The notes beneath the pieces were generated by a model. That model ran no database searches and had not been told where the DNA came from. It saw nothing but the letters and a program-made list of their open reading frames with translations. 64,000 bases of DNA from an uncultured Actinomycetota bacterium. Lineage in GTDB: Bacteria > Actinomycetota > Actinomycetes > Propionibacteriales > Propionibacteriaceae. How positions within the stretch are numbered: the stretch's first letter is position 1; each line of letters begins with the position of its first letter. The stretch covers positions 111,863-175,862 of the forward strand of contig CAVPPP010000046.1 in assembly GCA_963707005.1 (NCBI GenBank), read 5' to 3'. The position numbers and the translations under genes are program-made. This document shows, piece by piece, positions 1,440 through 19,893 of this stretch.

Positions 1440-1454
1440 TATCGCACTACGATA
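1440..1454. promoter_or_regulatory. palindromic operator candidate TATCGcactaCGATA
   Basis: Perfect 5-bp inverted repeat with 5-bp spacer, 68 bp upstream of the aldo/keto reductase start. Same consensus as sites at 7667, 13346 and 19879. Confidence 0.45.
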
Positions 1455-1903
1455 TATGTCTGGCTGGGAGGTCTCAGGGACTGGAACGACGGGGAAGCCG
1501 GTTGAATCTTGGTGCCAGCCGTCGTCGGGTCTCAGGGTTGTGGGGTGGGGACCTGCCGCAGCTGTCGGGCGCCTGGACCGGCGGTCAAGACCGCGAGTTG
1601 CGCACGTCGGCCTCGATCGCGACCGCCGAATGGGCTTTGGGTGTACCCGGCCAGGAGGTTGCCGACACGACGCAGACGGCTGTTGACGTAGCCAAGCCGA
1701 TCCGGGCCTCGTTCTCTCGGCTCCGGTGCTGCCCATCCGACCGCCGTGAGCTTTTCCAGTCGTGGATCCGGCCGACTCTTTTTCACGTCCATGTCGATCA
1801 GGGATCTGGTGGTGGTGTTCGTGCGGACCGTCGGCCCATTTGAAGTCCAGAGTCATCGGCGAACGGACGAAAGCCGGAATGAGCTGGATGCAGTGGTTTG
1901 AGG

Positions 1904-2995
1904 TCAGCGGCCGAGCAGGATCACCCCGAAGTAGGCGGTGGCGGCGACGAGCAGCCAAGACAGAAGCCCGAGGAACAGGGCCCGCCCTCCGGTGCGTCGC
2001 AGAGTCTGGAGGTTGATGGTGGTTCCGAGGCCGAAGAGGGCCGCCACGAGCAGCGCCTCCTGCAGCAGCTGCGCGTGGAGCAGCACGGTGGCCGGCAGCC
2101 AGCCGGTGCTGGTGAGGGCGACGGCAATCAGGAACCCGACGACGAAGAGCGGCATGATCGGGGGGCGTCGCTGGCGGGTGTCGGTGTTGCGGTGGAGCGC
2201 GAGTCGCCGGTGCAGGCCGACGGCGGCGACCAGCGGCGCGAGCAGGATGACGCGGCTGAGCTTGACCACCACGGCGGCGTCGAGGGCACCATCGACGCGG
2301 CTTGCGGTGGCGACAGTCTGACCGACGTCGTGGACACTGGCTCCCACCCAGCTGCCGAAGCCGATGGCGTCCAGGTGGAGCGGGTCCTGGAGGAGTGGCA
2401 GCAGCACGATGGCGAGGCTGCCACAGAGGGTGACCAGGGCGATGGCGACGGCAATGTCGTCTTCGTCGGCGTCGGCGGCGTCGCTCATGGCGGCGATCGC
2501 CGACGCTCCGCAGATCGAGAACCCAGTGGCGATCAGCAGCGTCCGGGTCCGCGACAGGCGCAGCAGCCGACCGAGCAGCTGCGTGCCGACGAAGGTGACC
2601 GCCACGGTCACGACCACCACGGCCAGCCCGCCCAGACCGAGGGCCTGGAGCTGCGGCAAACCAAGCTGCAGGCCGAGGAGAACGACGGCGAGCCGCAGCA
2701 GGCGGTGTGAGGCCACGTGGGTGCCGGCCCGCAGTGCCGTTCGGTGCAGACCAAGGTTGGTGACCAGGACGCCGAGCACAACGGCGACGGTGGCCGCGTT
2801 GATCTCATGGATCATCTCGCTGAGGACGAACGATGCGGCCGCGGCGGCCGCGGTCACCAGCAGACCGGGCCAGGCCGGGCCCCTACCGTCGGTCCGCAGG
2901 AACAGGTGCCGGGGACTCAGCGGCGCCAGGTCACAGTCGGGCCGACACCGGCTCCACCGGTGCCCGCCGGGTTCGGCGGGTTGAGCAGTGCTCAT
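1904..2995 (-). CDS. YeiH/UPF0324 family putative sulfate exporter (membrane protein)
   Basis: Polytopic hydrophobic ORF with an FSICGASAIAA motif. AAGGAA RBS 7 nt before the ATG at 2995 (MSTAQP...). The longer 399-aa ORF start is probably spurious. Confidence 0.7.
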   Translation of the reverse strand: MSTAQPAEPGGHRWSRCRPDCDLAPLSPRHLFLRTDGRGPAWPGLLVTAAAAAASFVLSEMIHEINAATVAVVLGVLVTNLGLHRTALRAGTHVASHRLLRLAVVLLGLQLGLPQLQALGLGGLAVVVVTVAVTFVGTQLLGRLLRLSRTRTLLIATGFSICGASAIAAMSDAADADEDDIAVAIALVTLCGSLAIVLLPLLQDPLHLDAIGFGSWVGASVHDVGQTVATASRVDGALDAAVVVKLSRVILLAPLVAAVGLHRRLALHRNTDTRQRRPPIMPLFVVGFLIAVALTSTGWLPATVLLHAQLLQEALLVAALFGLGTTINLQTLRRTGGRALFLGLLSWLLVAATAYFGVILLGR

Positions 2996-4505
2996 CGGTT
3001 CCTTGGTCAATCGCAGGTCAAGTCGGACGTGTGCAGGGCCAGCACTGGGGCAGCCTGGCTGGACTCGATGGGGAATGACGGGCCCTTGTCGTGGTGGAGG
3101 CACTGCAGGTGCGGGTGCTGGTTACCACCCCGGGCAGGGAACCGGACTTCGATGGCTGGTGGTTTCTCAGTGGCGCTCGGACGAGGTGCGAAGGGAGAGC
3201 GAAGCGGCGGCGAGGGCGATGATGGCTGGCCCAGGGTGGCCGATCACTAGGAAGAAGACTGTGCCGACGATGCCGAGGACGACCTTGATCGTGGTATGCC
3301 GCTGGTGCATGTCGGGGCGGTGGTCGGGATGGCGGACAGGTGAGCGCTGGTGCTGGGCGTCGTGTCCGGGTTTTCGCTTGGTGAACAGTGCGGTGCTGCG
3401 GGCGGTCATCGGATTCCCTATCGTGTTGGGGGTTCGGTGGGCGGTGATGTTGGTCCTTGATCAGGCCGCATCGAGTAGCGGGGATCCTGGCCGGCATCAG
3501 ATTGATAGTCGACCAGGGTCGTGATGCGGCCGGTACCCGAAGTGCTTTATGGGTGCCGGTAGGGGGTGGGGGGCTGCCGCCCGGATGTGCGGACGGCGTG
3601 CGGTGCGGGGCATCGATGGTGTACGCAAACGCGATACGTCCTCTGGCTGGACGGCCTCCTCGGATCAGCTCCAATGATCGCCGTCAAGTTGATGTCGCAC
3701 TAGGGGCAGTGTCGGTCATAGTCGAGACGCTCACGTTGCCGAGAATCAGCAACTTGAATGAGGGAAGGGACGCAACTCGCACTGTAAAGGGGAGAGGTCG
3801 ACGGTGATGGGTGGTGGGCGGGCGGGCTGGATGTCGGTCGAGGCGGCGAGTACCTGAGGAACTTCGTTGGCCTCGGTACGGGCAGCGGCGTCGCGTCGGC
3901 TTGCCGCCGAAAAGGGAGTGAACGCTAATCGAGCAATCGATCTCCACCTGCCGGCCAGGTGACTGTAGCGGGCAATGCCGACAGACTCCGGGCCGATTCA
4001 GCGGGGTCTGCGGGAAGGCACAGACGGTGCCGCGATGGTGAACCAGACGTCGATAGTTTCTCGTGGGTGCGGCGAAGTGTTGTACCGGCGCCGTCCCGGC
4101 GCAGCCGGGGCCGGAGAGCCGGACGGCCGCCAACCGACCACGGACGGACTCGACGGATGACCAGCACAGACTCGGTCACGCCGACCAGCAATCCCAGCAG
4201 TCTCGGCAAGTCCGTGATCGTCATGATGGGCGTCGCCGGTAGCGCCGGGTAGGTCTCGGGGTGGATGACCAGGAATTCATCTCGACGGGACCAACGCTCC
4301 CGACGCGATTCCTATCCAGGCATGTGAGGGTCAATGGCATGACCCGATCGCCTTCAAGACTGGCTTGGGGCTGTCACTCTCGACCACAATCTGGGTGCCA
4401 CCTCACCGCATCAACTTGGAGCCCATCTCCATGTGCGCGACTCCGCAGTCGTCGTCAGCCGCTAAAGAGACTGTGCAGAACAGCAGAAGCGTCCGGCTTG
4501 CTAGA

Positions 4506-5225
4506 TCAGGGGTGTCTGCGCTCGTAGAGCGGGGTTGCCACTGGTCTGCGATGAGCCGTCTGGGTATCCGTCGTGGACTGGGGCTGGTCGAACATGTCGG
4601 TGGTGGCTGTTGCTCCGGTGACGTGGGCGAGTCGCGCCAGCTCGGAGCCGAAGAATGGGGGTTCGCCACGGCGGCCGACGATCACCGCTCGATGGTCGGC
4701 CATGGGTGAGACGACAGCATGGTGGGCGTCTGCCCCGGGGATCCAATCGGGTTCAAGGGCTACGCGGTGGAGCAGGTCGAAGGGACCGAATCTTCGCAGT
4801 TGGTCGGCGGCGAGGTCGGGTGCAGCCGGGGTGGCGAAGGTGACCTGCGGTGCGGCCGAGACGTCAAGCAACACACTCCACTGCGCCCGAAAGACCAAGG
4901 GAGCCGCTGACGCCAAGATCTCACCCGCTCGGGAGGGGTCGGCAGCGATGCGTCGGTGCAGCTCAATGTCGTACTCGATGCCGCCGCCACGTGGATAGTT
5001 GCGCACCCATTCCACCTGCACCGACTCCAGACGGTCGCAGGCCGCCACCAGCTCTTCCACCGTCTGGGTGGGCGGCAGATCCAAGATGAACTCCTCCACC
5101 TCGATCTCGCCGCGCTTCTCGACGATCTCTACCATGTTGATGTCGGCACCAAGCGCACCCAGTGCTGATGCCACGGCGCCCAGGGTTCCCGGCCGATTCG
5201 GCATCTGAACTCGAATAAGTAGCAC
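4506..5225 (-). CDS. ACT domain-containing protein
   Basis: The N-terminal LLIRVQMPNRPGTLGAVASALGALGADINMVEIV matches the ACT ligand-binding fold. 239 aa. Confidence 0.6.
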   Translation of the reverse strand: MLLIRVQMPNRPGTLGAVASALGALGADINMVEIVEKRGEIEVEEFILDLPPTQTVEELVAACDRLESVQVEWVRNYPRGGGIEYDIELHRRIAADPSRAGEILASAAPLVFRAQWSVLLDVSAAPQVTFATPAAPDLAADQLRRFGPFDLLHRVALEPDWIPGADAHHAVVSPMADHRAVIVGRRGEPPFFGSELARLAHVTGATATTDMFDQPQSTTDTQTAHRRPVATPLYERRHP

Positions 5226-5338
5226 TCGACAATTCTGCAGGATTTTGCATCGACGGTGGACCTTCTCCCGGCGCCGCAGATCGCAGTAAGCGAGCTGGGA
5301 CTGGCGTTAACGGCGTTTCCGGCCCAACCCGCTGACTG

Positions 5339-5600
5339 ATGGTCAGCGGGGAAGGTGCCGTGACGACGACACTGGAGATTGTGCCGAAGAAGACGAAGCC
5401 GGAGCCCTCTGCGGAGGAACTGGCGGCCAAGGAACTGGTCCGGGTAGCCCGAGAGCAGGGTCCGTCCTTGACCGGCCCGGACGGGCTGTTGAAGCAGTTC
5501 ACCAAGAGTGTGCTCGAGACAGCGTTGAACGTGGAGATGACCGAACACCTCGGCCATAAGAAACACAGGGCACCGGAGGAGCGGGACTCCACCAACGGCT
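5339..5600 (+). mobile_element. IS256-family transposase N-terminal fragment (remnant)
   Basis: LTGPDGLLKQFTKSVLETALNVEMTEHLGHKKH is the conserved N-terminal region of IS256/mutator transposases. The ORF degenerates after about 85 aa. Confidence 0.6.
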
Positions 5601-5891
5601 GTCCATCGAGAAATAGTGCGCCGATGCCGGCGATCAAGCCAGTGCCGTCGAGTGCCCGACCCCGCACAACGCAGAGAAGACAGCTGCGAAGAAGGCTCCC
5701 GCTCGGCCCGGGGGAACCGAAGGGCGGACAGACATGCGCGCCTCCCTCGAAACCAGCGGACCCTCGTGGTCACTGAAGAGCCTGTGATCATTCCGTCCCC
5801 GAGCAGGCCCGCGTGATCACGCGGTAGTCGATCCGGGTCGTCGTGGAACGCGGTGCTCTGGTGATCCCAGGCTCTGGGGCAGTCTCCGATG

Positions 5892-6614
5892 TCAGGTGAG
5901 GTTGGACAATCCCGCGGCTACGGCGAATCCGAGCACGGTCGCAAGGCCGGCGATGTTGCCGGCCTTCTCTCGGGCCTCGGGCACCATCGAGTCGACCAGC
6001 ATCACCAGTAGCGCCCCTGCGGCGAACCCGTCGATTCCGGCCTGAACATTGCCGCTGGCGAGGTCGGCGAGTGCGTAGCCACCGACCGTGGCGAGGGCGC
6101 AGACGACCGCCACACCGACCCACAGCCGGATCACTGCGGCGGGGGACTTGCCCGCTGCGCGCATGTCAGCGGCGGAGCCGACCCCTTCGGGAAGGTTGGA
6201 CACGAAGATGGCGACCAGTAACGCCACACTGACGCCTTCTCCGGTCGCCAACCCGATCCCCAGGACCGCCTGCTCGGGGATCCCGTCGAGGAGCGCGCCC
6301 AGGGCCAGGGGCAGTCCGGCCGCTCCGCCGCCGTTGCGCCCGCCCAGTCTCTCGACAGCTCGGTCGGCGACGAAGAACGTGACGGCTCCCAGGGCCAGGC
6401 CGATGGCCACGCTGGTGGGTGTGCCGATCTGCAGACCCTGCTGCGCCAGCTCGAACGCGACGCTGGAGATGAGGGCGCCGGCACCGAAGGCCAGCACGGT
6501 CCCGACGACAGCGTCCGGCCACCGACGGGCCAGCGCCAGCAGCGCACCCAGGACCAGTGAGGCGGCCGCCAGTGCACCCCATCCCAAAGCGATCAGCACA
6601 GCTCGATCTTGCAC
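5892..6614 (-). CDS. ZIP family metal (zinc) transporter
   Basis: 240-aa membrane protein with ZIP-like helices and a conserved LPEGV-type motif (FVSNLPEGVGSAADM). GTG start. Confidence 0.7.
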   Translation of the reverse strand: MQDRAVLIALGWGALAAASLVLGALLALARRWPDAVVGTVLAFGAGALISSVAFELAQQGLQIGTPTSVAIGLALGAVTFFVADRAVERLGGRNGGGAAGLPLALGALLDGIPEQAVLGIGLATGEGVSVALLVAIFVSNLPEGVGSAADMRAAGKSPAAVIRLWVGVAVVCALATVGGYALADLASGNVQAGIDGFAAGALLVMLVDSMVPEAREKAGNIAGLATVLGFAVAAGLSNLT

Positions 6615-6919
6615 CCAGGACCTGGTTGGTCACATCCGTGGCAGGGCACCGACGACTCGACGATCGGCTCGCTGTCTAGCTCGAGTGCGGCATCGACGTC
6701 TTGTTCCGGAAGAACTCGCAGATATGGGGTACTGATTGAACAGAGCCAGCCGGTGTCGTCTCGGTGACCGCCACCTCCCCGACCGGTGACGGCGGCGCAC
6801 GCGTCGCTCACTTTCGGCGGGGCAGTCGGACGCGCGAGTGGGTCTGACGCTCATGCCTTCGTCGGTCGAGCAGGAACCGCGTCTGGGGTCCGAGCTCGTA
6901 GCCGCCGATCCATCCTGCG

Positions 6920-7312
6920 TCAGGTTGGCTGGTTGGTTCGGTCGGCAACAGCGGGCCAACCTGAGGGCGTACGGATGAAGTCGGCCGGGGCGAACACTGC
7001 GAGCAGTGTCGCCGGACGGCCTGATCCATTGGCCAACCCGATCCGTTCTCCTCGCGCAACGTAGACGAGAGTGCCTGGGACCAGCGTGGCTTCCCGGCCA
7101 CCGCCGCGGATTCTCAGCTCGCCGTCGAGCATGACAAGGAGGGCGGCTGATGCTCCGTGGGTGTGCTCAGGCATGCCGCCACCGGCTGGAATAGTGAGGT
7201 GAGCAGCCGCCAGTTCGGCGCCGTCCTGGTCGTCGACCAGGATCTCGACGCTCGGGCCCAGCGGCAGCGGCGCTCGCCGCACTGCCCCGTGGCCCGGGAC
7301 TACAACGCGCAT
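6920..7312 (-). CDS. cupin domain protein
   Basis: Cupin motifs (GGGMPEHTHGASAALLVMLDGEL). Start trimmed to ATG at 7312 (MRVVVPGHG). Confidence 0.6.
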   Translation of the reverse strand: MRVVVPGHGAVRRAPLPLGPSVEILVDDQDGAELAAAHLTIPAGGGMPEHTHGASAALLVMLDGELRIRGGGREATLVPGTLVYVARGERIGLANGSGRPATLLAVFAPADFIRTPSGWPAVADRTNQPT

Positions 7313-7663
7313 GAAAGCTCCTTCTTGAGTATGAGGTGGGTGGTCACCACATGAGGTGGACGCGCCGACATGACCGACTTTGCGGCGCTCGACGGTAGAT
7401 CCGGTGCTTGATCGCCTCCACCGTCGGCACCGCTTGCCTGCCCGATCCGAGGGCTCGGCGAGGATTCCAGGTCGCGGACACGCGTCGACCGTCATGTCGC
7501 GCAGGTCATCGCTCAGCCTCTCGCTCAAGCCGGAGTTTAGCGGACCGCCGTCCTCTAATAGCGGCCGCGTCCGTTTGCAGTTGCCGGCCACCTCGCCAAT
7601 GCCCAGCACGGCGTTGTCGGCGCGCTCGCGGGGGTCGCAGAGGAGCCTCTCGACTTATATGTC

Positions 7664-7681
7664 GTAATACGATATATCTAG
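7664..7681. promoter_or_regulatory. palindromic operator candidate (a)TGTCGtaataCGATAta
   Basis: Variant of TATCG-N5-CGATA in the divergent cupin/GNAT intergenic region. Confidence 0.4.
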
Positions 7682-7858
7682 GTGAGGGCATTGGGCGTCG
7701 CGACCTGCGCACCGAACGTCTGCGAGAGGGGCGTCGGATCGCTGCCTGCTCGGCGGTCACAATCTGGGTTCTGTGGCCGTGGGGAAGGTCAGCGAGACGT
7801 CGCCTAACGACTGTCGGACCGACATGGTTTCGGGTCGTCCCACGAAGGGAGAGCTGAG

Positions 7859-8434
7859 ATGGAGAGTGTCACCGTACGAGTGCTCGGCGTGGACCAGTGG
7901 CGGGAGTATCGCGCCCTACGTTTGGCTGCGCTGAAGGATTCGCCCCATGCCTTCTCGAGCAGTCTCGACGAGGAGCTGACCCACGACGAGCAGCAGTGGC
8001 GTGCGTGCATGGTGCGTGCCCACCGGCTGCAGGCTGAGCGTGATGGTGCTCCGGTTGGGGTCGTGTCGGTCGGTCCGACGGCAGACGAGGAGGGCTCGGC
8101 CGACGTGTTCGGACTCTGGGTGGACAGTGCGGCTCGCAACACCGGGGTGGCATGGGGTCTGGTGGAGGCGGCCTGCGACCAGGCGTTGAAGAGCGGGTGG
8201 GGTCATCTGTACTACTGGGTCGGAACCCAGAACGGGCGAGCTATCGGTTTCGCCAGCAACTTCGGCTTCCGGCCCACGTCGCACCGACGGACGGCACGTA
8301 CCCCATGTGTGGACTGCGGGGAGCACCAGGAGATCGCGATGGTGCTCTCGCTGCCGAGCAATGCGGGTGTGCCGAACCCGATGGGTCCGCGGCTGATCAG
8401 CCAGCCCGGTCCGGCCGGGGGTGGTGTGTCCTGA
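7859..8434 (+). CDS. GNAT family N-acetyltransferase
   Basis: 191 aa. The acetyl-CoA binding region VGVVSVGP...GLWVDSAARNTGVAWGLVEAA is typical of GNAT. Confidence 0.7.
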   Translation: MESVTVRVLGVDQWREYRALRLAALKDSPHAFSSSLDEELTHDEQQWRACMVRAHRLQAERDGAPVGVVSVGPTADEEGSADVFGLWVDSAARNTGVAWGLVEAACDQALKSGWGHLYYWVGTQNGRAIGFASNFGFRPTSHRRTARTPCVDCGEHQEIAMVLSLPSNAGVPNPMGPRLISQPGPAGGGVS

Positions 8435-8535
8435 CCCCGCCGGCCAAAGCGGACCGCTGCTAGGCGTTGTCTTGTCCGGGTGTCGTCGCGGGTCGCTCCT
8501 GGGTTGAGGGGAAGAATATCCTCTAAACTGTTCTG

Positions 8536-9255
8536 GTGTCCGACGTGATGCCTGAGGGTCGTTACGCAGCTCTGGCGGTGCCCTCACGTCGGCGCCTGCT
8601 CGACATCCTGCGCGCGGCCGACAGTCCCATGGACGCGGCCACCCTGGCCGAGGCGGTCGGGCTTCACCTGACGACAACCCGGTTCCATCTCGATGTTCTG
8701 GAGCAGGCCCGACTCGTCCACCGGTTCGTCGACCGCGGCGGTCGACCGGGTCGACCACGGGTGCTCTACCAGGTGGTCGATGAAGCGAGCCAGGAGTCGG
8801 GCCCGGACGACAGATACCAGGAACTGGCGGCCGTGCTGGCCGAGGCGCTCAATGGAGAGCCTGACCTCACACGACAACGAGCAGAAGATGCGGGTCGACG
8901 CTGGGCAGAGACGCAGGTGCCGGTGCAGGACCTGTCGTGGGAGGACGGCACCCGGCAGGTCGGGGACGTGTTCGCCCGGCTGGGATTCGCCCCGCGCGTG
9001 GTCGACGACCATGACGGCCGACACGTGGAGCTGACCGCCTGCCCGTTCCGCGAGGTGGCGCGCGACCACCCCCAGGTCGTGTGCGCCGTCCACGCCGGTC
9101 TGCTGCAGGGCACGCTGAGTCGATTGGGTGTCCCGGAGGCCCAGCAGGCCGGTATCCGCCCGTTCGTCGCCCCCGACCTGTGCATCGTCGACCTGCCGCG
9201 CCGAGGCGGCACGGACAGCGGTTCGGTGCCGCCGGCGCGCTCACCCCGAAGTTGA
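8536..9255 (+). CDS. winged-HTH (ArsR-like) transcriptional regulator
   Basis: N-terminal wHTH ([44 protein letters not shown]). The C-terminal domain carries a CPF...C..H motif. Paralogue of 21490..22185. Confidence 0.6.
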
Positions 9256-9347
9256 CGTTCGCGACACCCCGCCGTAGTAAAAACTATTGTGATCCCTTAA
9301 ACTCGGTGATGCCGAGTGCCCTCGGTCGATGGGGGAGGGGAGTCGCT

Positions 9348-9707
9348 GTGACGTATGTGATCGCCCAGCCATGTATCGATGTGGTGGACCGGGCCTGCGT
9401 GGATGAGTGTCCGGTCGACTGCATCTACGAGGGTGCCCGAGCTCTGTACATCCACCCCGATGAATGTGTCGACTGCGGAGCCTGCGAGCCCGTCTGCCCG
9501 GTCGAGGCGATCTTCTACGAAGACGACGTCCCGGCGCCGTGGTCACCGTTCATCGCCGACAACGCGAGGTTCTTCACCGATCCGCTGCCGGGACGGTCCG
9601 CCGCGCTGGCCTCGCCCGGGGGCGCGGCCAGGCTGGGTCGGGTGGGCGCCGACACGGCCCTGGTCGCCGCGCATCCCCTCCCCGTTCCCGCCTCGGGTGA
9701 AGGATGA
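9348..9707 (+). CDS. fdxA: 7Fe ferredoxin FdxA
   Basis: [61 protein letters not shown] is a near-canonical actinobacterial FdxA. GTG start with GGGGAGGGG RBS. Confidence 0.9.
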
Positions 9708-9866
9708 CCCGCCTTCTCCGGTCCGGTACGCAACCTCGCCACCTCGACGCTGACGTCGGCTGCGCGGCGGCCACGATCACCGATGGGGGAGCACCGACCC
9801 CGATGACGACCCCGGACCGGGTCATCGGCTCCTGGGCGGCCTCCACCGGCCCTCCGATGACAGCTG

Positions 9867-10325
9867 GTGCCCTTCGTCGTCCCGGGGATGCTTGCTGTGG
9901 TGGCCGGGGGGCTGCTGGCGGCCGTCGTCGCGCCCGCCCCCACCGAGCACGCCACGTGGGCGGCCGCCTACCTGGTCCTGGTCTGGGGTGTCGCGCAGGT
10001 GGGCCTGGGACTCGGCCAGGGGCTGTGTGCGGGTCGTCTGGCGACCGCCCTGGTCGTGGCCCAGGTCATCGGCTGGAATGTCGGGTCCGCCGCGGTCGTG
10101 GTCGGCACCGTGAGCGGTGTTCCCGCCGTGGCCGATGTCGGTGCCGTCGCTGCTGGTGGTGACCTTGATCTTGTTGGCCCGTGGGGTCACCGGCGGCCCA
10201 GCCAGGCGCCGGGTCGGGGTGCCGTCCTGGGCCCGGCTGAGCTACGGGCTGCTGATCATGGTGCTTCTCGTCAGCATCCCGGTCGGGCTGATCCTGTTAC
10301 GGCTGCGGGCCTGAGCGGTGGCTGA
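9867..10325 (+). CDS. hypothetical membrane protein (possibly frameshifted)
   Basis: The hydrophobic ORF continues in a second frame (10117..10314, VPSLLVVTLILLARGV...). Coding status is uncertain. Confidence 0.25.
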   Translation: MPFVVPGMLAVVAGGLLAAVVAPAPTEHATWAAAYLVLVWGVAQVGLGLGQGLCAGRLATALVVAQVIGWNVGSAAVVVGTVSGVPAVADVGAVAAGGDLDLVGPWGHRRPSQAPGRGAVLGPAELRAADHGASRQHPGRADPVTAAGLSGG

Positions 10326-10399
10326 CCGGTGAGGGACGCCGACACGTTGCTCATCTTCTCTTGTCGTGTATGACCTGTGACGAATGGACGTGGTAGGCG

Positions 10400-12125
10400 A
10401 TGGCTGTTGTGGAACGCACCACTCAGACGGTGGCGGTCACGCCACGCCCCAGCACCCACGGCGAGGTGGTGTGGCGGTGGATGACCACCACCGATCACAA
10501 GGTGATCGGCAACCTGTACTTCGTCACGTCGATGGGTTTCTTCATGTTCGGCGGTGTGCTGGCGTTGGCGATGCGCGCCGAGCTCGCCTTCCCCGGGCTG
10601 CAGTTCCTGTCGTATGAGACCTACAACCAGTTCTTCACCATGCACGGCGCGATCATGCTGCTGCTGTTCGCGACCCCGCTGTTCGCCGGCTTCGCCAACG
10701 CGATCATGCCGCTGCAGATCGGCGCCCCGGATGTCGGCGTTCCCGCGGCTGAACATGTTCTCCTACTGGCTGTACCTGTTCGGCGGCCTGATGGCCTGTT
10801 CCGGTTTCCTGACCCCGCAGGGTGCGGCCAGCTTCGGCTGGTTCGCGTACGCGCCGCTGAGCGACGCGGTCAACTCACCCGGAGCCGGCAGTGACCTGTG
10901 GATCATGGGTCTGTACCTGGCCGGCATCGGCACCGTCCTCGGCTCGGTCAACTTCGTCACCACCATCATCTGTCTGCGGGCGCCGGGGATGACGATGTTC
11001 CGGCTGCCGATCTTCACCTGGAACATCCTGGCGACCTCGATCCTGGTGCTGATCGTCTTCCCGGTGCTGGCGGCGGCGCTGCTGGTGCTGGAGGCCGACC
11101 GGGTGCTCGGGGCGCACATCTTCGACGCGGCCACCGGCGGCGCCATGCTGTGGCAGCACCTGTTCTGGTTCTTCGGACACCCCGAGGTCTACATCATCGC
11201 GCTGCCGTTCTTCGGCATCATCACCGAAGTGCTCCCGGTCTTCAGCAAGAAGCCGGTGTTCGGCTACGTCGGCCTCGTGTCGGCGACGCTGTTGATCGCG
11301 GCCTTGTCGGTGTCGGTGTGGGCGCACCACATGTTCGCCACCGGCGCGGTGAACCTGCCGTTCTTCTCCTTCATGTCCTTCCTGATCGCGGTCCCGACCG
11401 GGGTGAAGTTCTTCAACTGGATCGGCACCATGTGGGGCGGCAACATCACCATGGCCACCCCGATGCTGTGGGCGGTCGGGTTCTTGACCACCTTCCTGTT
11501 CGGCGGCCTGACCGGCGTCATCCTGGCCAGTCCGCCGCTGGACTTCCACGTCACCGACTCCTACTTCGTGGTCGCCCACTTCCACTACGTGGTGTTCGGC
11601 ACGGTGGTGTTCGCGATGTTCTCCGGCTACTACTTCTGGTGGCCGAAGTTCACCGGGCACATGCTGGACGAGCGGATCGGCAAGATCCACTTCTGGATGC
11701 TGTTCGTCGGCTTCCACACCACGTTCCTGGTCCAGCACTGGCTCGGGGTCGAAGGGATGCCGCGGCGGTACGCGGACTACCTGCCCAGCGACGGCTTCAC
11801 CATCTTGAATCAGGTGTCCTCGGTCGGGGCGATCCTCCTCGGCGCGTCGATGCTGCCCTTCCTGTACAACGTGTGGAAGAGCCGCAACAACCCGAAGGTC
11901 ACTGTCGACGACCCGTGGGGCTGGGGTAGGTCGCTGGAGTGGGCCACCTCCTGCCCGCCGCCGCGTCACAACTTCACCTCGCTGCCCCGGATCCGGTCGG
12001 AGTCGCCGACGTTCGACCTGCACCACCCCGAGGTGGCGCTGCAGGAGTATCCGGCCAACGACGCTGATGCGGACGGTTTGGTCGATGCCGGGGACGACGA
12101 GGGCCGAGTGGAGGAGCCTCCATGA
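10400..12125 (+). pseudogene. ctaD: cytochrome c oxidase subunit I (ctaD), +1 frameshift
   Basis: Full-length CtaD with all hallmark motifs ([28 protein letters not shown]). The reading frame switches at ~10736: the sequence reads GATGTCGGCGTTCCCG, whereas the conserved DVAFPRLN would need GATGTCGCGTTCCCG, so an extra G is present. Confidence 0.85.
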
Positions 12126-12210
12126 GCGGATCGACCAGGTCAGCGATGCCCGCGATGAGCCCTAGGGCCGTGACCGCCGTTGCCGAGACACGTCAGGAGG
12201 AAGTGGGACC

Positions 12211-12651
12211 ATGCCCAGAGAGGTGACGGTACTCACCACGGAGGAGTGCCGGACGCTGCTGCGCGATCACCACTTCGGTCGGGTCGCTTTCGTCGACACG
12301 GTCGGAGTGCTGCCACTGATCATTCCCGTCAACTATGTGTGGGCGGATGACGCGGTGGTGTTTCGTAGCGATTCCGGCAGCAAGCTGCGGGCCGCTGCTC
12401 GTGGCGCGCCGGTCGCGTTCGAGATCGATGGCCTCGACCGGGAGCGCCGCATCGGCTGGAGCGTGGTGGTCCGCGGCCACGCGCTGGAGATCACCGATCC
12501 GACCAGAATCGCTGGGCTCGACGAGCTGCCGCTGGTGGCCTGGTCTCCGCGGGAACAGCCGCACTACGTGAGTGTGACCCCGAGCCACCTGATCGGCCGG
12601 CAGATCAGCGTCTTCGGTCTGCCGTCGCACTGGTGGACCGAAAACCCGTGA
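12211..12651 (+). CDS. pyridoxamine 5'-phosphate oxidase (PPOX) family protein
   Basis: MPREVTVLTTEECRTLLRDHHFGRVAFVD... is the typical PPOX/F420-dependent split-barrel N-terminus. Confidence 0.7.
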   Translation: MPREVTVLTTEECRTLLRDHHFGRVAFVDTVGVLPLIIPVNYVWADDAVVFRSDSGSKLRAAARGAPVAFEIDGLDRERRIGWSVVVRGHALEITDPTRIAGLDELPLVAWSPREQPHYVSVTPSHLIGRQISVFGLPSHWWTENP

Positions 12652-12800
12652 TCACCGCAACGCGCGCGCAGCGATACCAACAGCCCGGCATCGCTCTGCC
12701 TTGTCCCACCTTCGCGAGCATCCCCGGCGAGGCGGACCCTCGGCGTTGATGCGCCGGCTGCTGCCTGGATGTTGTCAGCGGTGAAAGGCGGCAGGACAGC

Positions 12801-13259: not shown

Positions 13260-13345
13260 GGTGTCGATCCCTTCATGATCACGGCTGCCTGATCCGGATT
13301 CTGCCTGGTCCGGCTTGGGGCACGGTAGCAGCGCCCAGATATTTA

Positions 13346-13360
13346 TATCGTGTTACGATA
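13346..13360. promoter_or_regulatory. palindromic operator candidate TATCGtgttaCGATA
   Basis: In the divergent MarR (12801..13259) / SPFH (13480..) promoter region. Confidence 0.45.
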
Positions 13361-13479
13361 GGTATGTCGAGAACGGATCGACGTGTTCTCGGCATCGAGG
13401 CAGCTCAGAACCCACCGGGCGGCGCTGCCACCGGCCCGGTGACATCACGGATGTCATCACATCTCGGAAGGAGACGACA

Positions 13480-14454
13480 ATGGGCGTAGAGACGGTTTTC
13501 ATCGTGCTGGCCTTGGTGATCATGGTGGGCCTGCTGGCCATGGCGATGAGTGTGCGGGTGGTCAAACAGTTCGAGCGTGGCGTGGTGTTCCGGCTGGGCA
13601 AGGTGGAGAGCCAGGCACGCCAGCCCGGTCTGACCCTGATCACCCCGTTCGTCGACCGGCTCCAGAAGGTCAACATGCAGATCATCACGATGCCGGTGCC
13701 GGCCCAAGACGGGATCACCCGCGACAACGTCACCGTCCGGGTCGATGCGGTGGTCTACTTCCGCGTCGTCGACCCACTCCGCGTCGCCGTGGACGTCCAA
13801 GATTATGACTCCGCCATCGGCCAGGTCGCGCAGACATCCCTGCGGTCCATCATCGGGAAGAGCCTGCTGGACGACCTTCTCTGCGATCGGGAACGGCTGA
13901 ACCAGGGTCTGGAGCTGATGATCGACAGTCCCGCCGCCGGCTGGGGAGTGCATATCGACCGGGTCGAGATCAAGGATGTCGCACTGCCGGAGTCGATGAA
14001 ACGGTCGATGTCGCGTCAGGCGGAAGCCGAGCGCGAACGACGGGCACGGGTGATCACCGCTGACGGTGAGCTCCAAGCGTCCGGCAAACTCGCCGAGGCC
14101 GCGACCGTGATGGCCGACACACCTGCCGCGCTCCAGCTCCGCCTGCTCCAGACCGTCGTCGAGGTGGCCGCGGAGAAGAACTCCACATTGGTCCTGCCGT
14201 TCCCCGTCGAGCTGCTCCGCTTCCTGGAGAGCGCCACGATCCCGGCTGCCGCCAGCCCGTCCACCTCCACACCGGCCACCGCCGAGCCGGCCGCCGCCGC
14301 GGAACCAGCTCCAGTCAGGCCTGCCAGTATCGCCGCACCCAGACCTGCCCTGCCGGGGGTGGTGCTCGATCACAGCCTGTCCGAGCTGGCAGGGCTGGCA
14401 CCGACGTTGGCGAGCCTCGCACCGACCGAGAAGGCCACGCCGGTGTCTGTCTGA
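13480..14454 (+). CDS. SPFH/band-7 (stomatin/HflK-like) protein
   Basis: N-terminal TM followed by RVVKQFERGVVFRLGKV...ITRDNVTVRVDAVVYFRVVDP...EAERERRARVI. GGAG RBS before the ATG at 13480. Confidence 0.85.
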   Translation: MGVETVFIVLALVIMVGLLAMAMSVRVVKQFERGVVFRLGKVESQARQPGLTLITPFVDRLQKVNMQIITMPVPAQDGITRDNVTVRVDAVVYFRVVDPLRVAVDVQDYDSAIGQVAQTSLRSIIGKSLLDDLLCDRERLNQGLELMIDSPAAGWGVHIDRVEIKDVALPESMKRSMSRQAEAERERRARVITADGELQASGKLAEAATVMADTPAALQLRLLQTVVEVAAEKNSTLVLPFPVELLRFLESATIPAAASPSTSTPATAEPAAAAEPAPVRPASIAAPRPALPGVVLDHSLSELAGLAPTLASLAPTEKATPVSV

Positions 14455-14474
14455 CTGCCGGTGTCTGTCTGACT
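14439..14474. repeat. 18-bp tandem duplication (GCCGGTGTCTGTCTGACT x2)
   Basis: Two exact adjacent copies. The first contains the SPFH stop codon. Confidence 0.8.
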
Positions 14475-14565
14475 AGGGTCGGACAACAACGTCTGCATCC
14501 AGGACCTCAGCTCAACGACACCATGCAGCACAACTACACCTACGGCTTGTTCGAAGGAGCCACCC

Positions 14566-15117
14566 ATGTTCTCGACCGCTGATCTGCAGGCGGACCGCAA
14601 TGAGGTGGTGGTGGGTCTGGACGACTCACCGGCAGGACGTGCCGCACTGTGGTGGGCGGCCCGCTATGCGCGGTTCAGCTTCACCGACCTGCGCGCCGTC
14701 CACGTGCTGCCTGCCTGGGTTGACGCGACCTGGGCCTGGACCGTTGGAACCGCTGCCCTGGCCGGTCCCACCCTGACGGAATGGATGGACGACACGATCG
14801 ACGGCACTACCCACATCTTCGAGGCGGTGGGCCCCGAGCTCGACTGGTCGCTGGAACACGTCGTGGGCAGCCCAGGACCCGTTCTGGTCGCCGCGGCTGC
14901 ACACGCGCAGTTGCTCATCGTGGGAACCCGACACCGCACCGGAGTCGCACGGCTGCTGTCAGGGTCGGTCAGTCAGTACTGCCTGCGCGGCGCCGTCTGT
15001 CCCGTCGTCGCCATCCCTGCCCTGCCGGCGTCCAGCACCACGTCGTCGAGCTCAGCTCGACGCCAGCGCACTGGTGCGAGTCCACGCTTACGGCGTCGAG
15101 TAGACAACGATCCATGA
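14566..15117 (+). CDS. universal stress protein (UspA family)
   Basis: VVVGLDDSPAGRAALWWAARYA...LLIVGTRHRTGVARLLSGSVSQYCLRGAVCPVVAIP. Confidence 0.8.
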   Translation: MFSTADLQADRNEVVVGLDDSPAGRAALWWAARYARFSFTDLRAVHVLPAWVDATWAWTVGTAALAGPTLTEWMDDTIDGTTHIFEAVGPELDWSLEHVVGSPGPVLVAAAAHAQLLIVGTRHRTGVARLLSGSVSQYCLRGAVCPVVAIPALPASSTTSSSSARRQRTGASPRLRRRVDNDP

Positions 15118-15435
15118 CCAGACGCGCGTCGACGGCCGGCTCGGACACCACATTGCCTTTGATCGGTCTCCGCGCATCCCTGTCAACCCCTGCACAAGGA
15201 TGACAGGTCTGGCGGGGCGCGACGTGATTGTCGTTCGATGATCCCCGACGGCTGAACGCAAAGGCTCGCAGTCCGGCGCCGACGACCGTGTGTGCGTGCG
15301 ACATGATCTCCGGCTCTCCGCCTGGCACGGCCTCTGGTTCCCGACCATGGTCCGCCGGGCGAGACGGGCTGATGGTCATGGTGATCAGGATGTGGGGTCG
15401 GGTGGGGGCAGCGCCCCGCCGTCATCCTTCCAGCG

Positions 15436-16101
15436 GTGCAGCTGCTTCGCCGGGACCCTGTCGTCGTCGGCGGCGCCCTCGGTCTCGTAACGGTCCCGGT
15501 GGATCATCTCCGAGGTGAGGTAGTCATACACCTCGTCGTCCACAGCGATGCCATCTCGCTGGTACTCCTGGTGAATGAGCTTTCGGTCTTGTCCTGGGTA
15601 GAGCACGCGGTCGAAACCGCCGTCGAGGCCGGCGCAACACTCATCTGGCTGCCCGAACCGATCATCGCCGCCCACCGCTGCGACCACATCAACACCGTCG
15701 ACATCACCTTGGCTGAGGGGGCACGGTTGATGGTCCGCGAAGAGCTGCTCCTGGGACGGCACCTGGAACCGTCTGGTCGCCTGCGACAACGAACTCGGGT
15801 AACCGCGGACCAGCAGCCACTGTTCCACCAGGATCTCCAGCTGGGCGACCAGAGCAGCCGCACCCCAGCCGTGGCCGCCAACTACCGAGCGGTCGGGTCG
15901 ATCCTGGTTGTCGACCCGGCCTGGACAACCGCGACCCGACCCGCGCCCCTGCGACTGACCGACTCGGCAGCCCTGATGCCGCTGGCCCGAAACGCCGTCC
16001 TCATCAGCGCGGTCGCCGCCGACAGCCATGACCTGCGGACCGTGCTCAACGTGGGCATCGCGGCGCTGGGCCCACCCTGGGACCCACGCCGCCCACGCTG
16101 A
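15436..16101 (+). CDS. UreD/UreH-like urease accessory protein fragment (orphan)
   Basis: Weak match to the UreD core (ATLIWLPEPIIAAHRCDHINTVDITLAEGARLMVREELLLGR...RQRTRVTADQQPLFHQDLQLGD). No other urease genes are present and the N-terminus appears to be missing. Confidence 0.3.
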   Translation: MQLLRRDPVVVGGALGLVTVPVDHLRGEVVIHLVVHSDAISLVLLVNELSVLSWVEHAVETAVEAGATLIWLPEPIIAAHRCDHINTVDITLAEGARLMVREELLLGRHLEPSGRLRQRTRVTADQQPLFHQDLQLGDQSSRTPAVAANYRAVGSILVVDPAWTTATRPAPLRLTDSAALMPLARNAVLISAVAADSHDLRTVLNVGIAALGPPWDPRRPR

Positions 16102-16265
16102 CACCGACGCGCCACAGCGGCCGCCCGTGGCCTCGAGCTCACCGTTCATCCCCACCGCACACACACGGAAACCCGCCACGATCGTGTAAACCGCGGCGCC
16201 GGCTCAACTGAGCAGCGAGTCATCCACCCGGTCCCCGTCAGCATCCTCTGCGCCAAGATCATGGT

Positions 16266-17479
16266 TCAGTCCGCAGACCCGGACGAGGGCCAGTCGAGGA
16301 GCCGGGCCCCGAGGACAGCGATCTGCAAGGCAAGACTGTCGGCGGGGTCGGCGGGGTTGCTGCCGGTCAGCGCCTCGACTCTGGCCAGGCGGTAGGTAAC
16401 GGTGCGCACTGACACGTGCAGACGGCGTGCGGTCTCGGTGGCCACCGCCCCCGTCGCGTAGTACGTCTCCAGGGTGTGCAGCAACGGTTCCGCTCCGCCA
16501 CGTGCGCGGGTGAGGGGAGTAAGCACTCCGTGCACCAGGTCGACCAGCGCTGCCTGGTCGCGGCCGATCACCCGGTAGAGAAGGAGGTCCGCGGCCCGGA
16601 TGGTGGCCGCGTCGAGCTCGAGCCGGCGGGCGAGCCGCAGGGCTTCCCGGGCCTGCTCGTAAGACTGGGCGATGCCGTAGGCGCCCGGGTGGGGCTGGCC
16701 GGTGGCAACCTGCCAATGACGGTCCCCGGTGTGTCGGCGGAGCTGATTGCGGAGGTACTCGACCGCCGGTGGCCGGGCCCCGCTCGCTGGGGTGCCATCG
16801 GCGGCGGATTCACCGGGCAGGATGACGACGAGAAAGGTGTCCTTGGTGGCGACCAGCACCTCACGGTCCCCGTAGCGATCGACCACGGCACGCTCGATGG
16901 GGCTGGCCGCCCGGTCCAGCTGGTGAGCAGACGAGGACCCGGGTTCGGCGAGGAGAACCTGGTGGCTCCGGCTGAGGTCGAGACCGAACGGCTGCGCGCG
17001 CTGGATCAGACGGGCGACGTCGGCGTCGCCGCGCAGAAGATCGTCGATGAACTCCCGCCGAACAGACTCCTCCTGGCGGATCATGGCGTGCCGGGCCGCT
17101 TGGTGGCCGTCGATCAACACCTCGACCGCCTCGTTCACCACCCTCAGCATCGTCTCCGCCGCCGTCTTGGTGCCACCAGCCGCGTGGCCCACGGTGGCTG
17201 GCATCGCCCGCCACAGATGCCAGGCGGCCGACAGGTACAGGTCAACGGCCTGGTCGGCGTCGATGCCGGCGGCGGCGGTCAGCTCACCCAGCTGTCGCAG
17301 GGCGGTCAGCTGGGATGGCTGGGGCCGCCGACCCTCGGTGGCGGCGTCGGACAGGATCTGGAGATACTCACCCAACAGCTGAACCGACACACCCGCCTCA
17401 GCGGCTGTGCGTGCCGCCACCTGCGACACCCAATCCGCCCTGCCTCGGTCATCGAAGTTCGAGTCTGGGTCACGAGTCA
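16266..17479 (-). CDS. PucR/CdaR family transcriptional regulator
   Basis: C-terminal PucR HTH (LHTLETYYATGAVATETARRLHVSVRTVTYRLARVEALTG). GTG start at 17479 preceded by GAGGGGGAA. Confidence 0.75.
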
Positions 17480-17867
17480 CAGCATTCCCCCTCGTCCGCC
17501 CACCATCCCACTGTAGTTGCCGACGTCCGGCAAGGACACCACGTCGATGATGACCGACACTGCCTCTATCTTGGCGAGCGCCGTTCGGGGACGATAGAGA
17601 CATCAGCGCCACCCGGCGCTCCCGACCGAGAAGGAGGCGCCCGATGCCCAGACAGCACGATCCACGAGCACGGCTGGACCTCCACAACGTCAGCATCGAC
17701 CTCGTCGCCGCCGAGGCCGGACGGTGCGGTTTCACCCACCTGGACAGCGGGCGCGTCTGCCTGCGTCCCCATCGCCACCCGGGGTCCTGCCACCCGCAGA
17801 GGACCGTCGTGACGCCTACCCCCGCGTCGTCGATGCGTCAGCAGTAGCACGACCACACCACACACTT

Positions 17868-17888
17868 CAACGCTGCGCCGCAGCGTTG
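17868..17888. promoter_or_regulatory. perfect 10-bp inverted repeat CAACGCTGCGcCGCAGCGTTG
   Basis: In the PucR/DksA divergent intergenic region, 55 bp upstream of the dksA-like start. Confidence 0.35.
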
Positions 17889-17942
17889 CCGGCCGATGCG
17901 CTGCCATCAGGCCGGTTGTCGCTGTACACAAGGAGCCGACCA

Positions 17943-18377
17943 ATGACCATGGAACTCACTGACACCACAGGCATGCCCGCACCAGCCGCCGCGCAGCTGG
18001 CAGCCGTGCGCACCGAGCTGGAGCAACAGCGCAGCTTCCGCGTGGAGCAGATCGAGGAGGTGGAGGTCGACGCCGCCGAGGCGCTGGCCGCCGGCGACGA
18101 CGCCCGCCTGCAGGTGACCCGCTCACTGTTCATGGCCGCCGAAGCAGCGCTGCAGGAGATCAACGCCGCACTGGCCCGCCTCGACCACGGAACGTACGGG
18201 ACCTGTGAGCGCTGCCACCAGCCCATCCCGATCGAACGGCTCGAGGTGTTGCCCACCAGCCGGTCCTGCACGCCGTGTCAGGCGCGAGCCGACATCGGCC
18301 GGACCCGCAGAGGTGTACACAGCCGCTGGCCTATCGCCGGCCCGGCAAGCCCGGCCGCCAGCGCGCCCTTGCAGTAG
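17943..18377 (+). CDS. DksA/TraR family C4-type zinc-finger protein
   Basis: [25 protein letters not shown] four-Cys zinc finger preceded by a coiled-coil region. AAGGAG RBS. Confidence 0.7.
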
Positions 18378-18672
18378 ACCGTCTGGTCGCCTCACCACCT
18401 GTCCGGGGTGTGCCCAACGATCCACCTGTCCCGGGCCGGTCCGCCATTCTCCTGACCCGGTTGAACACCTGACCCCCCGCCGTGGTCCGTTTCCCGCAAC
18501 ACCGTGACCGACGTCGCCGAACATCTGGCACGCGTCCACGACAGCCGCGACCGGCTCACACGCGGATCACGACATGACCTCGCCCTGTCGGGCCGCTCTA
18601 GGCAGCCGCCCGCAGCCCAACACCCGTGCGGCCGTTACCGGCCGCACCCCTCGACTGAAGGACGTAGCTCCC

Positions 18673-18927
18673 ATGACCACCGCCGACACCTCTTTGATGA
18701 GCCGTCGACCTCGCCGGCAACAGACCCGTGCTCACTCGCTGCCTCGCGGCACCGGTCTCGATGGGCCCGCGCTCGAGCGCCAGCAGCTGCTCCACTCGCT
18801 GAAGACCGTGGGGTGCGTTGCGCTCACCTTGTTCTTTCTTCGGCTCGGCATTCCCGGCGCCGCCTTCGTCTTTCTGGGTGTCGGCGTTCTCCTCCTCAGC
18901 AGGAGACCGGGAGGACCGAGGAGGTAG
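18673..18927 (+). CDS. hypothetical small membrane protein
   Basis: One hydrophobic helix (VALTLFFLRLGIPGAAFVFLGVGVLLL). Weak support. Confidence 0.25.
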   Translation: MTTADTSLMSRRPRRQQTRAHSLPRGTGLDGPALERQQLLHSLKTVGCVALTLFFLRLGIPGAAFVFLGVGVLLLSRRPGGPRR

Positions 18928-19035
18928 GAATGCCGGACGCGGAGCACGGTGCCCTGGTGATCGCGGCGAAACAGGCGCGTCACGGCGCGGTGGGATCACC
19001 CCCATCCGCGGCTTGCAGTACACACAGGTAAAAGG

Positions 19036-19299
19036 ATGACTGTCATGTTGACTCAGCGGGAAAAGCAGCTGTTCGACGACCTCGAACGGCAGTTCTACGC
19101 CACCGACCCCCACCCTGCCGGACCCGATGATGCCGGACCCGATGAGGCAGGTGGCTCGTCGAGGGCATGGGTCCTGGAGGCCGCGATGGGAGTCTGCGTG
19201 GCCATGGTCGCCATCTGCGGCCTCCTTGGCTCACCGGAGGGCGTCGTCTGCTTCACCGGCACCATGATGATCTTGGCCTTCATGCACTACCACCTCTGA
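19036..19299 (+). CDS. DUF3040 domain membrane protein
   Basis: LTQREKQLFDDLERQFYATDP plus a C-terminal double helix. Paralogue of 28039..28290 and 44216..44467. Confidence 0.65.
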   Translation: MTVMLTQREKQLFDDLERQFYATDPHPAGPDDAGPDEAGGSSRAWVLEAAMGVCVAMVAICGLLGSPEGVVCFTGTMMILAFMHYHL

Positions 19300-19529
19300 T
19301 GCCAGCAGACCGTCTCCCAAGCGGAATCCCCGCGCGCCACGCATCTTGACGGCGCCTCGAGGAGCTTGATCAAGACCAGGCAGCAGAAGCGTCGCCCCAA
19401 CCGTTGTTGATCATGGTCGTGCTTTGCGCGGCGGCGATGGTCGACTCCGCCGGCCACCGCAGATCGACGTTAGCTGGCCGGCTGTCGCGATCGGTCGCGC
19501 TCTGCTCAGGAGAGTGCGTCCGGTAGCGA

Positions 19530-19841
19530 TCACGTGGCGGAACGATCCGGTCGAGGAAGCGCGCCGACGTCACGCCTGATGACTTCGGTGAAGTCTGGGT
19601 ACGCGGCCATGATGTCTTCGAAGTCCAGTTCGCTGGGGAGGTCGAAAGCCTCCTGCCGCGCCAGCAGGTAGCGGACGGTGGCGGCGGCGACCTGGCCCTC
19701 CTGTTTCCCTTCGACGTCGAGATCACGCGCTGCACCCTCGCCGAGACGCAGCTCGATTGCGATCTCGTCGTCCACGTCGTGAACCTGGATCAGATAGACA
19801 TGCTCTCCATCCGCCTCGATGTCGAACTGCTCTCCACCCAC
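19530..19841 (-). CDS. hypothetical acidic protein
   Basis: 103-aa ORF with good codon bias. The palindromic motif lies 40 bp upstream. Confidence 0.4.
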   Translation of the reverse strand: MGGEQFDIEADGEHVYLIQVHDVDDEIAIELRLGEGAARDLDVEGKQEGQVAAATVRYLLARQEAFDLPSELDFEDIMAAYPDFTEVIRRDVGALPRPDRSAT

Positions 19842-19878
19842 GCTGTGTCCTTTCCATACTGACCGCTCCCACCACTAT

Positions 19879-19893
19879 ATCGCAATACGATAC
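19879..19893. promoter_or_regulatory. palindromic operator candidate TATCGcaataCGATA
   Basis: 40 bp upstream of hypothetical gene 19530..19841. Confidence 0.45.

Follow-up and report, generated by a model that had tools for sequence, protein, structure and literature searches.

The window analysed here, a 64,000-nucleotide stretch from an uncultured bacterium of the Propionibacteriaceae (contig CAVPPP010000046.1, positions 111,863 to 175,862; G+C about 66%), encodes a MarR-family regulator that lies divergent to a gene for an SPFH/Band 7 membrane protein. A 15-bp palindrome, TATCG-N5-CGATA, is located between these two genes and recurs at three other places, such that four of four sites (sites 1-4) are intergenic (Table 1; window genes were taken from Pfam searches and the source's own gene calls). 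Comparative sequence analysis indicates that the palindrome is most probably the operator of this MarR protein, which would act on it as an autoregulated dimeric repressor.

Three exact copies of the palindrome were found in the window where 0.01 would be expected, and none of 100 dinucleotide shuffles reached three. When up to one mismatch was allowed there were five matches against 0.41 expected. The original prediction, a palindrome recurring in four promoter regions, was therefore borne out, with three exact copies and one TGTCG variant far above chance and with distances to the gene starts (measured as 36-347 bp) as it had described. Two of its coordinates were correct (1440-1454 and 13346-13360) and two required adjustment (7664-7681 to 7660-7674, and 19879-19893 to 19878-19892). 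The TATCG and CGATA arms with their 5-bp spacer were present as proposed, but the core common to the four window sites is longer than had been stated: T[A/G]TCG-YR-N-TACGATA, a 7-1-7 palindrome. The flanks are otherwise unrelated to one another, which argues that the four sites did not arise by duplication of a repeat element. The fifth one-mismatch match, at 58058 (TATCGGACGGCGCTA), is GC-rich and was reported by neither matrix scan, one with a threshold of 10 bits and the other, using a matrix trained on foreign sites, with a threshold of 8 bits. A "(t)atgtcg-like element" suggested to follow several copies was rejected as a third component, as ATGTC was found in only 4 of 206 flanks of sites in other genomes.

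Table 1. Sites, genes and comparison features (L numbers denote loci in other genomes or contigs; bits are scores from the foreign-trained matrix)
Feature	Position	Strand	Sequence or family evidence	Context and predicted role
Aldo/keto reductase	320..1372	-	Pfam Aldo_ket_red 2.8e-70	Predicted lineage-specific target of site 1
Site 1	1440..1454		Exact, TATCGCACTACGATA; 25.6 bits	Aldo/keto reductase start 67 bp downstream
Cupin, about 130 aa	6920..7312	-	Pfam Cupin_2	Far side of site 2; weak candidate target
Site 2	7660..7674		One-mismatch TGTCG variant, TGTCGTAATACGATA; 34.0 bits	184 bp to GNAT, 347 bp to cupin
GNAT-led cluster	7859..12651	+	Pfam, source gene calls	Site and cluster kept in L011
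GNAT	7859..8434	+		Heads the cluster downstream of site 2
HTH_20/ArsR-like	8536..9255	+		Second gene of the GNAT-led cluster
Further cluster genes after HTH_20	ends 12125 (COX1-like)	+		Ferredoxin, hypothetical gene, COX1-like
Pyridox_ox_2	12211..12651	+		Last gene of the GNAT-led cluster
MarR-family regulator, 152 aa	12801..13259	-	Pfam MarR_2 3.4e-15	Predicted binder and autoregulator
Site 3	13346..13360		Exact, TATCGTGTTACGATA; 32.5 bits	Divergent MarR/SPFH intergenic region, 86/119 bp to starts
SPFH/Band 7 membrane protein	13480..14454	+	Pfam Band_7 1.3e-36	Predicted conserved divergent target
Universal stress protein (Usp)	14566..15117	+	Pfam Usp in source gene calls	Downstream of SPFH
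Small acidic protein, 103 aa	19530..19841	-		Predicted target of site 4; homologues in L011 and L065 also preceded by sites
Site 4	19878..19892		Exact, TATCGCAATACGATA; 35.3 bits	Small acidic protein start 36 bp downstream
Second MarR	20546..21016			Different from the predicted binder
Acidobacteria-like MarR-CLC loci, examples (L091-L210)	L142:527-2915; L102:1457-3723; L099:11481-13693
Betaproteobacterial palindrome, Variovorax	L216:3961-3975
Betaproteobacterial palindrome, Ralstonia syzygii	L217:~3960-3985

The palindrome at MarR orthologues and in metagenomes

Orthologues of the window MarR (65-86% identity) were examined at 80 actinobacterial genome loci, each with 10 kb on either side, from at least 15 genera that include Pseudonocardia, Kribbella, Rhodococcus, Amycolatopsis, Actinophytocola, Blastococcus, Modestobacter, Geodermatophilus, Microlunatus, Jiangella, Nonomuraea and Streptosporangium. 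The exact palindrome was found upstream of the MarR start (within 200 bp, at 40-100 bp) at 69 of the 80 loci, and a copy with one or two mismatches (CATCG..., TGTCG...CGACA) occupied the same place at eight more. The site is thus conserved upstream of the MarR orthologue at 77/80 loci, and the original prediction, which had offered conservation in related genomes as a check, passed it at this site. When 68 distinct MarR-proximal sites were aligned, the information content was close to zero outside positions -5 to +19 (0 being the first core base) and the consensus read A.tTg TATCGTAaCACGATA TA.Tt; this confinement indicates a footprint rather than inherited flanking sequence. The operator consensus in other genomes can be written as TATCGTA-N-CACGATA with AT-rich flanks, and ttaTATCGTGTTACGATAggt is an example of a 23-bp operator probe sequence.

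An independent 23-nt matrix was built from 59 foreign MarR-proximal sites, excluding same-species contigs and the close relative L011. Scanned across the window, it returned exactly the four sites (25.6-35.3 bits) and nothing else above 8 bits, with a best score of 16.7 in 100 shuffles. In the 1.32 Mb around the MarR orthologues there are 105 copies of the exact palindrome, compared with a median of 0 for 60 permuted half-site palindromes, the real one included. TATCG/CGATA arms with spacers of 0-4 or 6-11 occurred 0 or 1 times each in the same DNA, showing that only a spacer of 5 is used. The runner-up among the controls, TGATC-N5-GATCA, had 16 copies in the foreign loci; it was considered as the site of a second regulator and set aside, as most copies lie inside called open reading frames (ORFs) and several fall in repeated conserved stretches, consistent with coding sequence. 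A similar frequency inside coding DNA had been named as a result that would count against the palindrome itself, and in the foreign loci the AT-type TATCG sites were intergenic, with only GC-rich TGTCG..CGACA look-alikes in real coding sequence.

In the reverse direction, metagenome contigs were scanned for exact TATCGTANCACGATA, using the motif alone, and at least 120 loci were recovered. Among the 120 matches listed, 45 had a MarR homologue with 35-68% identity to the window MarR; the site was positioned at or just before the MarR start in 39 of these and about 0.5-1.3 kb away in the other six. The listed matches without a MarR homologue were mostly on low-GC contigs, as expected of chance matches. 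A set of 41 of the matches listed comprised distant-homologue loci (<50% identity, 50-73% G+C), 12 of them on contigs too short to judge for a neighbouring CLC chloride-channel gene. Such a gene was found at 25 of the 29 informative loci, following MarR on the same strand at 21 and divergent at 4, and was absent from 4. The CLC genes occur with or without CBS domains, and the MarR proteins beside them are 35-48% identical to that of the window. Close homologues of one of these proteins are named from Candidatus Sulfotelmatobacter and Acidoferrum (Acidobacteriota). The recognition helix L(R/K)HHS.VEL..R is common to the actinobacterial and Acidobacteria-like MarR clades. Across the loci examined, no DNA-binding gene other than MarR recurs beside the site in both settings, and the association of the palindrome is with this MarR clade exclusively.

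Betaproteobacterial MarR homologues (48-50% identity) have other palindromes upstream, TATCACGGTGTGATA and TATGTCAcaccaTGATATA. These differences rule out their membership of the same specificity group, and the specificity group is therefore not simply set by overall identity. At the Variovorax locus, PAS and hemerythrin genes follow MarR.

The same operator at MarR-CLC operons suggests that the regulator/operator pair stayed fixed while target genes were exchanged. It is doubtful, though conceivable, that one ancient MarR clade with the same helix and operator in two phyla, controlling SPFH/DUF3040/Usp membrane-stress genes in Actinobacteria and a CLC chloride/proton transporter operon in Acidobacteria, also answers one physical signal in both arrangements, for example acidity, chloride or another anion. 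Acidity or an anion comes to mind because of the CLC link and the conserved histidines only, and that the signal is perhaps read by conserved histidines and arginines is speculation. If a single signal did operate in both phyla, MarR proteins would gain a novel type of input, and the roles of bacterial SPFH and DUF3040 proteins would become easier to approach.

The MarR protein and its proposed mode of action

The 152-residue window MarR matches Pfam MarR_2 (3.4e-15) and MarR (2.1e-07), and its AlphaFold2 monomer model (mean predicted local distance difference test score 84.4) has MarR topology, with helices at 15-41, 46-56, 66-73, 77-89 and 111-135 and strands at 93-97 and 105-109. In the model, helix 77-89 is the recognition helix, which starts with a conserved R-H-H-S, and residues 93-109 form the wing. 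The fold typical of the family comprises long terminal helices that mediate dimerisation, a helix-turn-helix and a wing formed by a beta-hairpin. All 50 PDB matches listed by Foldseek for this model were MarR proteins, at 16-26% identity. By sequence, none of the solved structures is close to the window MarR (best E 1.3e-08), and none of the NCBIfam equivalogs HpaR, MarR, SlyA, Rv0880, OhrR and BilQ was reached (best HpaR, 35.9 bits against a cut-off of 121.2). Compared with 20 selected homologues from several actinobacterial orders, the protein showed 64-84% identity and an essentially invariant recognition helix. Identical copies are present on soil-type metagenome contigs, and the closest named relatives belong to the Propionibacteriales. 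Culturable carriers include R. opacus and Rhodococcus jostii RHA1 (pRHL1 261736-262134), and WP_011599175.1 is a Rhodococcus version of the protein. The translation contains no cysteine, which excludes thiol-based sensing of the OhrR/SydR type.

Comparative genomics places a predicted palindromic operator in the promoter of this gene, as is characteristic of autoregulation in the MarR family. The original prediction had named the MarR as the simplest candidate binder and as autoregulatory, and footprinting, the independent matrix and the reverse search agree on that assignment. Measured between their centres, the TATCG and CGATA arms are separated by 10 bp, which suits a dimer on successive major grooves; by analogy with solved complexes of the family, the recognition helices (77-89) of both MarR subunits would sit in these grooves. 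Across 68 genomes, a conserved TATAnT hexamer, read at positions 13-18 in most of them, overlaps the MarR-side arm, and G-rich positions follow about 8-10 nt past it, where the start site is expected. At site 4 a TATAGT overlaps the gene-proximal arm in the same register. Since the MarR-side arm overlaps this -10-like hexamer, bound MarR would block RNA polymerase and repress its own gene until released by a signal; in the MarR family, homodimers typically loosen from DNA in response to a ligand, a metal or oxidation. Repression by this protein would extend to the divergent SPFH(-Usp) genes and, in the lineage of the window, to the aldo/keto reductase, the cluster from GNAT to Pyridox_ox_2 and the small acidic protein. 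We infer binding, repression rather than activation, and the operon extents; the same-strand GNAT-led cluster would form an operon, and Usp may be co-transcribed with SPFH.

Several observations weigh against this mechanism. The -10 assignment comes from the consensus only and fits poorly at window sites 1-3 (TAGACA, TATATC, TATAAA), where a generic promoter scan found nothing, and the AT-rich flanks could represent wing contacts instead. Three of the 80 MarR orthologue loci are without any upstream site, and the 80 genomes are related phylogenetically, meaning that fewer independent events stand behind the counts than the figures imply. Control is less certain for those presumed targets of sites 2 and 3 whose starts are 119-347 bp away.

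It is hardly credible that, instead of being a protein-binding site, the palindrome reflects AT-rich promoter sequence recurring by chance, or a repeat of structural or mobile origin. AT-rich words are indeed commonest between the genes when a genome has ~66% G+C, but this would not account for exact copies exceeding the 0.01 expected in the window, for 105 copies against a median of 0 for composition-matched permuted palindromes, for a spacer of strictly 5 or for a core kept across phyla; moreover, the flanks differ between copies, unlike those of a repeat element, and there was no Rfam match. It is also very improbable that another factor binds the palindrome and that the adjacency of MarR is incidental, whether this factor is the HTH_20 protein, the second MarR or one encoded elsewhere. 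HTH_20 has 42 homologues in the 80 loci and is itself encoded in the cluster downstream of site 2. However, in 77 of 80 genomes the site directly precedes the MarR orthologue. HTH_20, by contrast, is often accompanied by a COX1-like gene close by, usually with no site beside it, and gave a single match in all 120 motif-only loci listed. Homologues of the second MarR were found in only 3 of the 80 loci, and on the Acidobacteria-like contigs MarR was the sole regulator beside the site among the window-protein families screened.

A different possibility is that MarR does bind the palindrome while serving as an activator or dual regulator at some promoters, for example those of SPFH, GNAT or cupin. 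Some MarR proteins, such as those of the SlyA type, counter-silence or activate; furthermore, several sites are far upstream of start codons (119-347 bp), and a clear overlap with a -10 element is confined to the MarR side and site 4. We consider this unlikely, because the position of the site at the MarR promoter is the classic arrangement for a repressor and long 5' leaders could explain the large distances to the starts.

Content and history of the regulon

Gene families at the 80 loci were assigned by profiles. The genes that recur beside sites are MarR and, by far the commonest apart from MarR, SPFH and/or DUF3040, typically arranged as <SPFH <DUF3040 [site] MarR>, and further DUF3040-SPFH pairs often have extra sites. 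On Rhodococcus opacus pLPS8 (PGAP annotation) one site precedes DUF3040-SPFH by 57 bp and another precedes the MarR gene by 41 bp. Similarly, Rhodococcus sp. DK176 pDK3 (330001-380000; L218) has just two sites, at DUF3040-SPFH and at MarR; the L218 neighbourhood also encodes a truncated haemoglobin, ctaD-fdxA with a helix-turn-helix gene, a small alarmone synthetase, Dps, a CBS protein, aconitase and transaldolase. Usp is represented by 34 homologues in the 80 loci, often beside SPFH/DUF3040 genes, and recurs nearby together with a cardiolipin-synthase-like PLD gene and with pairs of HTH_20 and COX1-like genes. As the latter two are frequently close together across the 80 loci, this suggests that they are a second local regulator/target pair. 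Occasional further site-flanked genes encode PDH-E1-like protein, aconitase, glucose-6-phosphate dehydrogenase (G6PD), catalase, DUF4383 and DUF6789. Pairs of tandem operators in Amycolatopsis-type genomes, about 38-63 bp apart, precede a PDH-E1-like gene in three cases (L033:2417-2494, L042:2459-2521, L045:2662-2724) and in L041 (8419-8471) fall between DUF3040 and a Usp-labelled gene; they may allow cooperative binding.

The closest genome relative, L011 (a long-read metagenome-assembled genome; MarR 86% identical, DNA 84-94%), has kept sites 2, 3 and 4 with different flanks. There, site 2 is flanked by the GNAT cluster on one side and, on the other, by a G6PD gene absent from the window, and the window region from site 2 to the cupin gene is unconserved. 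The GNAT, acidic protein and PLD genes of L011 each match as at least two frames (14591-15155, 4894-5203 and 7014-8482), which are probably assembly frameshifts. A site also precedes the acidic-protein homologue in L011 and in Geodermatophilus (L065). The window protein had no Pfam or NCBIfam match; among 1.84 billion entries, its small group of proteins of about 90-120 aa numbers 67 representatives at E<=1e-3.

Site 1 is kept in L214, where the reductase is 92% identical, with a changed spacer and diverged flanks, and is absent at reductase homologues of 59-60% identity (L211, L212, L213). The reductase follows a different MarR in L212, L213 and P0244 (a 72% homologue, at the protein level only), and in L212 and L213 that MarR is accompanied by a TTGCAnCATGCAA-type palindrome. 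Distant reductase orthologues directly behind a different MarR have a TTGCATCATGCAA-type palindrome upstream (L212:9349-10957, L213:2055-3663, L211:9800-10000). This position behind a different MarR with another palindrome suggests that the reductase changed regulators in the lineage of the window.

The pattern of site conservation across all these loci indicates that the core regulon, MarR with SPFH/DUF3040, is old and that the aldo/keto reductase is a recent recruit; the GNAT cluster is probably a recent recruit as well. By the same comparison, the reductase, the GNAT cluster and the small acidic protein appear younger than the core targets. The target genes named originally are all site-flanked, but the conserved core is MarR with SPFH/DUF3040, and the reductase site is recent. 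The cupin/GNAT pair assigned to site 2 did not hold in this form, as L011 shows the conserved partner to be the GNAT-led cluster and not the cupin.

Within positions 1-24000 the window also contains a PLD-type cardiolipin synthase-like gene, ferredoxin, a COX1-like gene, urease and Usp, and the surroundings of MarR resemble an island of stress or dormancy genes. A 41-codon ORF between site 3 and SPFH (13364-13489) was considered as a decayed DUF3040 gene and rejected, as it did not match the DUF3040 profile even at E 10. A G6PD remnant between site 2 and the cupin gene, where L011 has its G6PD gene, was likewise rejected, with no similarity by tblastn or blastn. The ~450 bp from site 1 to the Cons_hypoth698 gene (1456-1900) showed no coding signature in any frame and no Rfam match.

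Significance and relation to known systems

The exact operator strings were found in no paper, and literature searches combining MarR with SPFH, chloride channel, DUF3040 or the genus names returned nothing on this regulator. The regulator/operator pair, with its sharply delimited operator and a small predicted regulon of membrane and stress genes, is an uncharacterised, widely conserved one of a familiar kind; the PDB, NCBIfam and the literature searched contain no member that has been characterised. Its existence is not surprising in principle and the evidence for it is solid; what it provides is an operator defined precisely enough to test, together with an initial set of targets for this MarR subfamily. 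The conserved targets, SPFH/Band 7 and DUF3040 proteins, are poorly understood in bacteria, and a dedicated regulator offers a practical way in. For DUF3040, a family of membrane proteins, one member has been tied to thermotolerance in Corynebacterium (PMC12554045). In addition, the recent recruitment of the reductase would be a small, clean example of regulon rewiring.

Among characterised regulators, SydR of Sinorhizobium meliloti is a redox-sensing MarR protein at a divergent gene pair that binds the inverted repeat TATCGCGATA in electrophoretic mobility shift assays (PMC11633110). This repeat has the same TATCG/CGATA half-sites as the window operator. However, the SydR arms abut (spacer 0) whereas the spacer here is strictly 5, SydR senses redox state whereas the window MarR has no cysteine, and no specific sequence relationship was found between the two proteins. 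The best structural matches to the window model are of the MftR/PecS/HucR type (8ylg, 8yli; 8ylg_B at E 5.5e-07 and a template modelling score of 0.65). Proteins of this type have been solved with operator DNA, and the model of the window MarR has a long first helix (15-41). Identity is 17-25% and the operators are unrelated; the urate-responsive (UrtR) subgroup to which these proteins belong is marked by an N-terminal extension and by conserved residues that bind urate.

E. coli MarR with marO, the archetype of the family, offers the familiar comparison: like the window MarR it is a winged-helix protein of ~150 aa whose gene has a palindromic operator near the promoter, and self-repression is presumed here. 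The MarR-DNA complexes 3vod and 5h3r are among the top Foldseek matches of the window model. The two proteins nevertheless differ in operator and targets, share only ~23-24% identity, and the window MarR scores 28 bits against the NCBIfam MarR cut-off of 240. MexR of Pseudomonas aeruginosa also has another operator sequence, together with an efflux-pump target and redox control, but its operator, GTTGA-N5-TCAAC, has the same 5-5-5 geometry as the window operator, with half-sites one helical turn apart.

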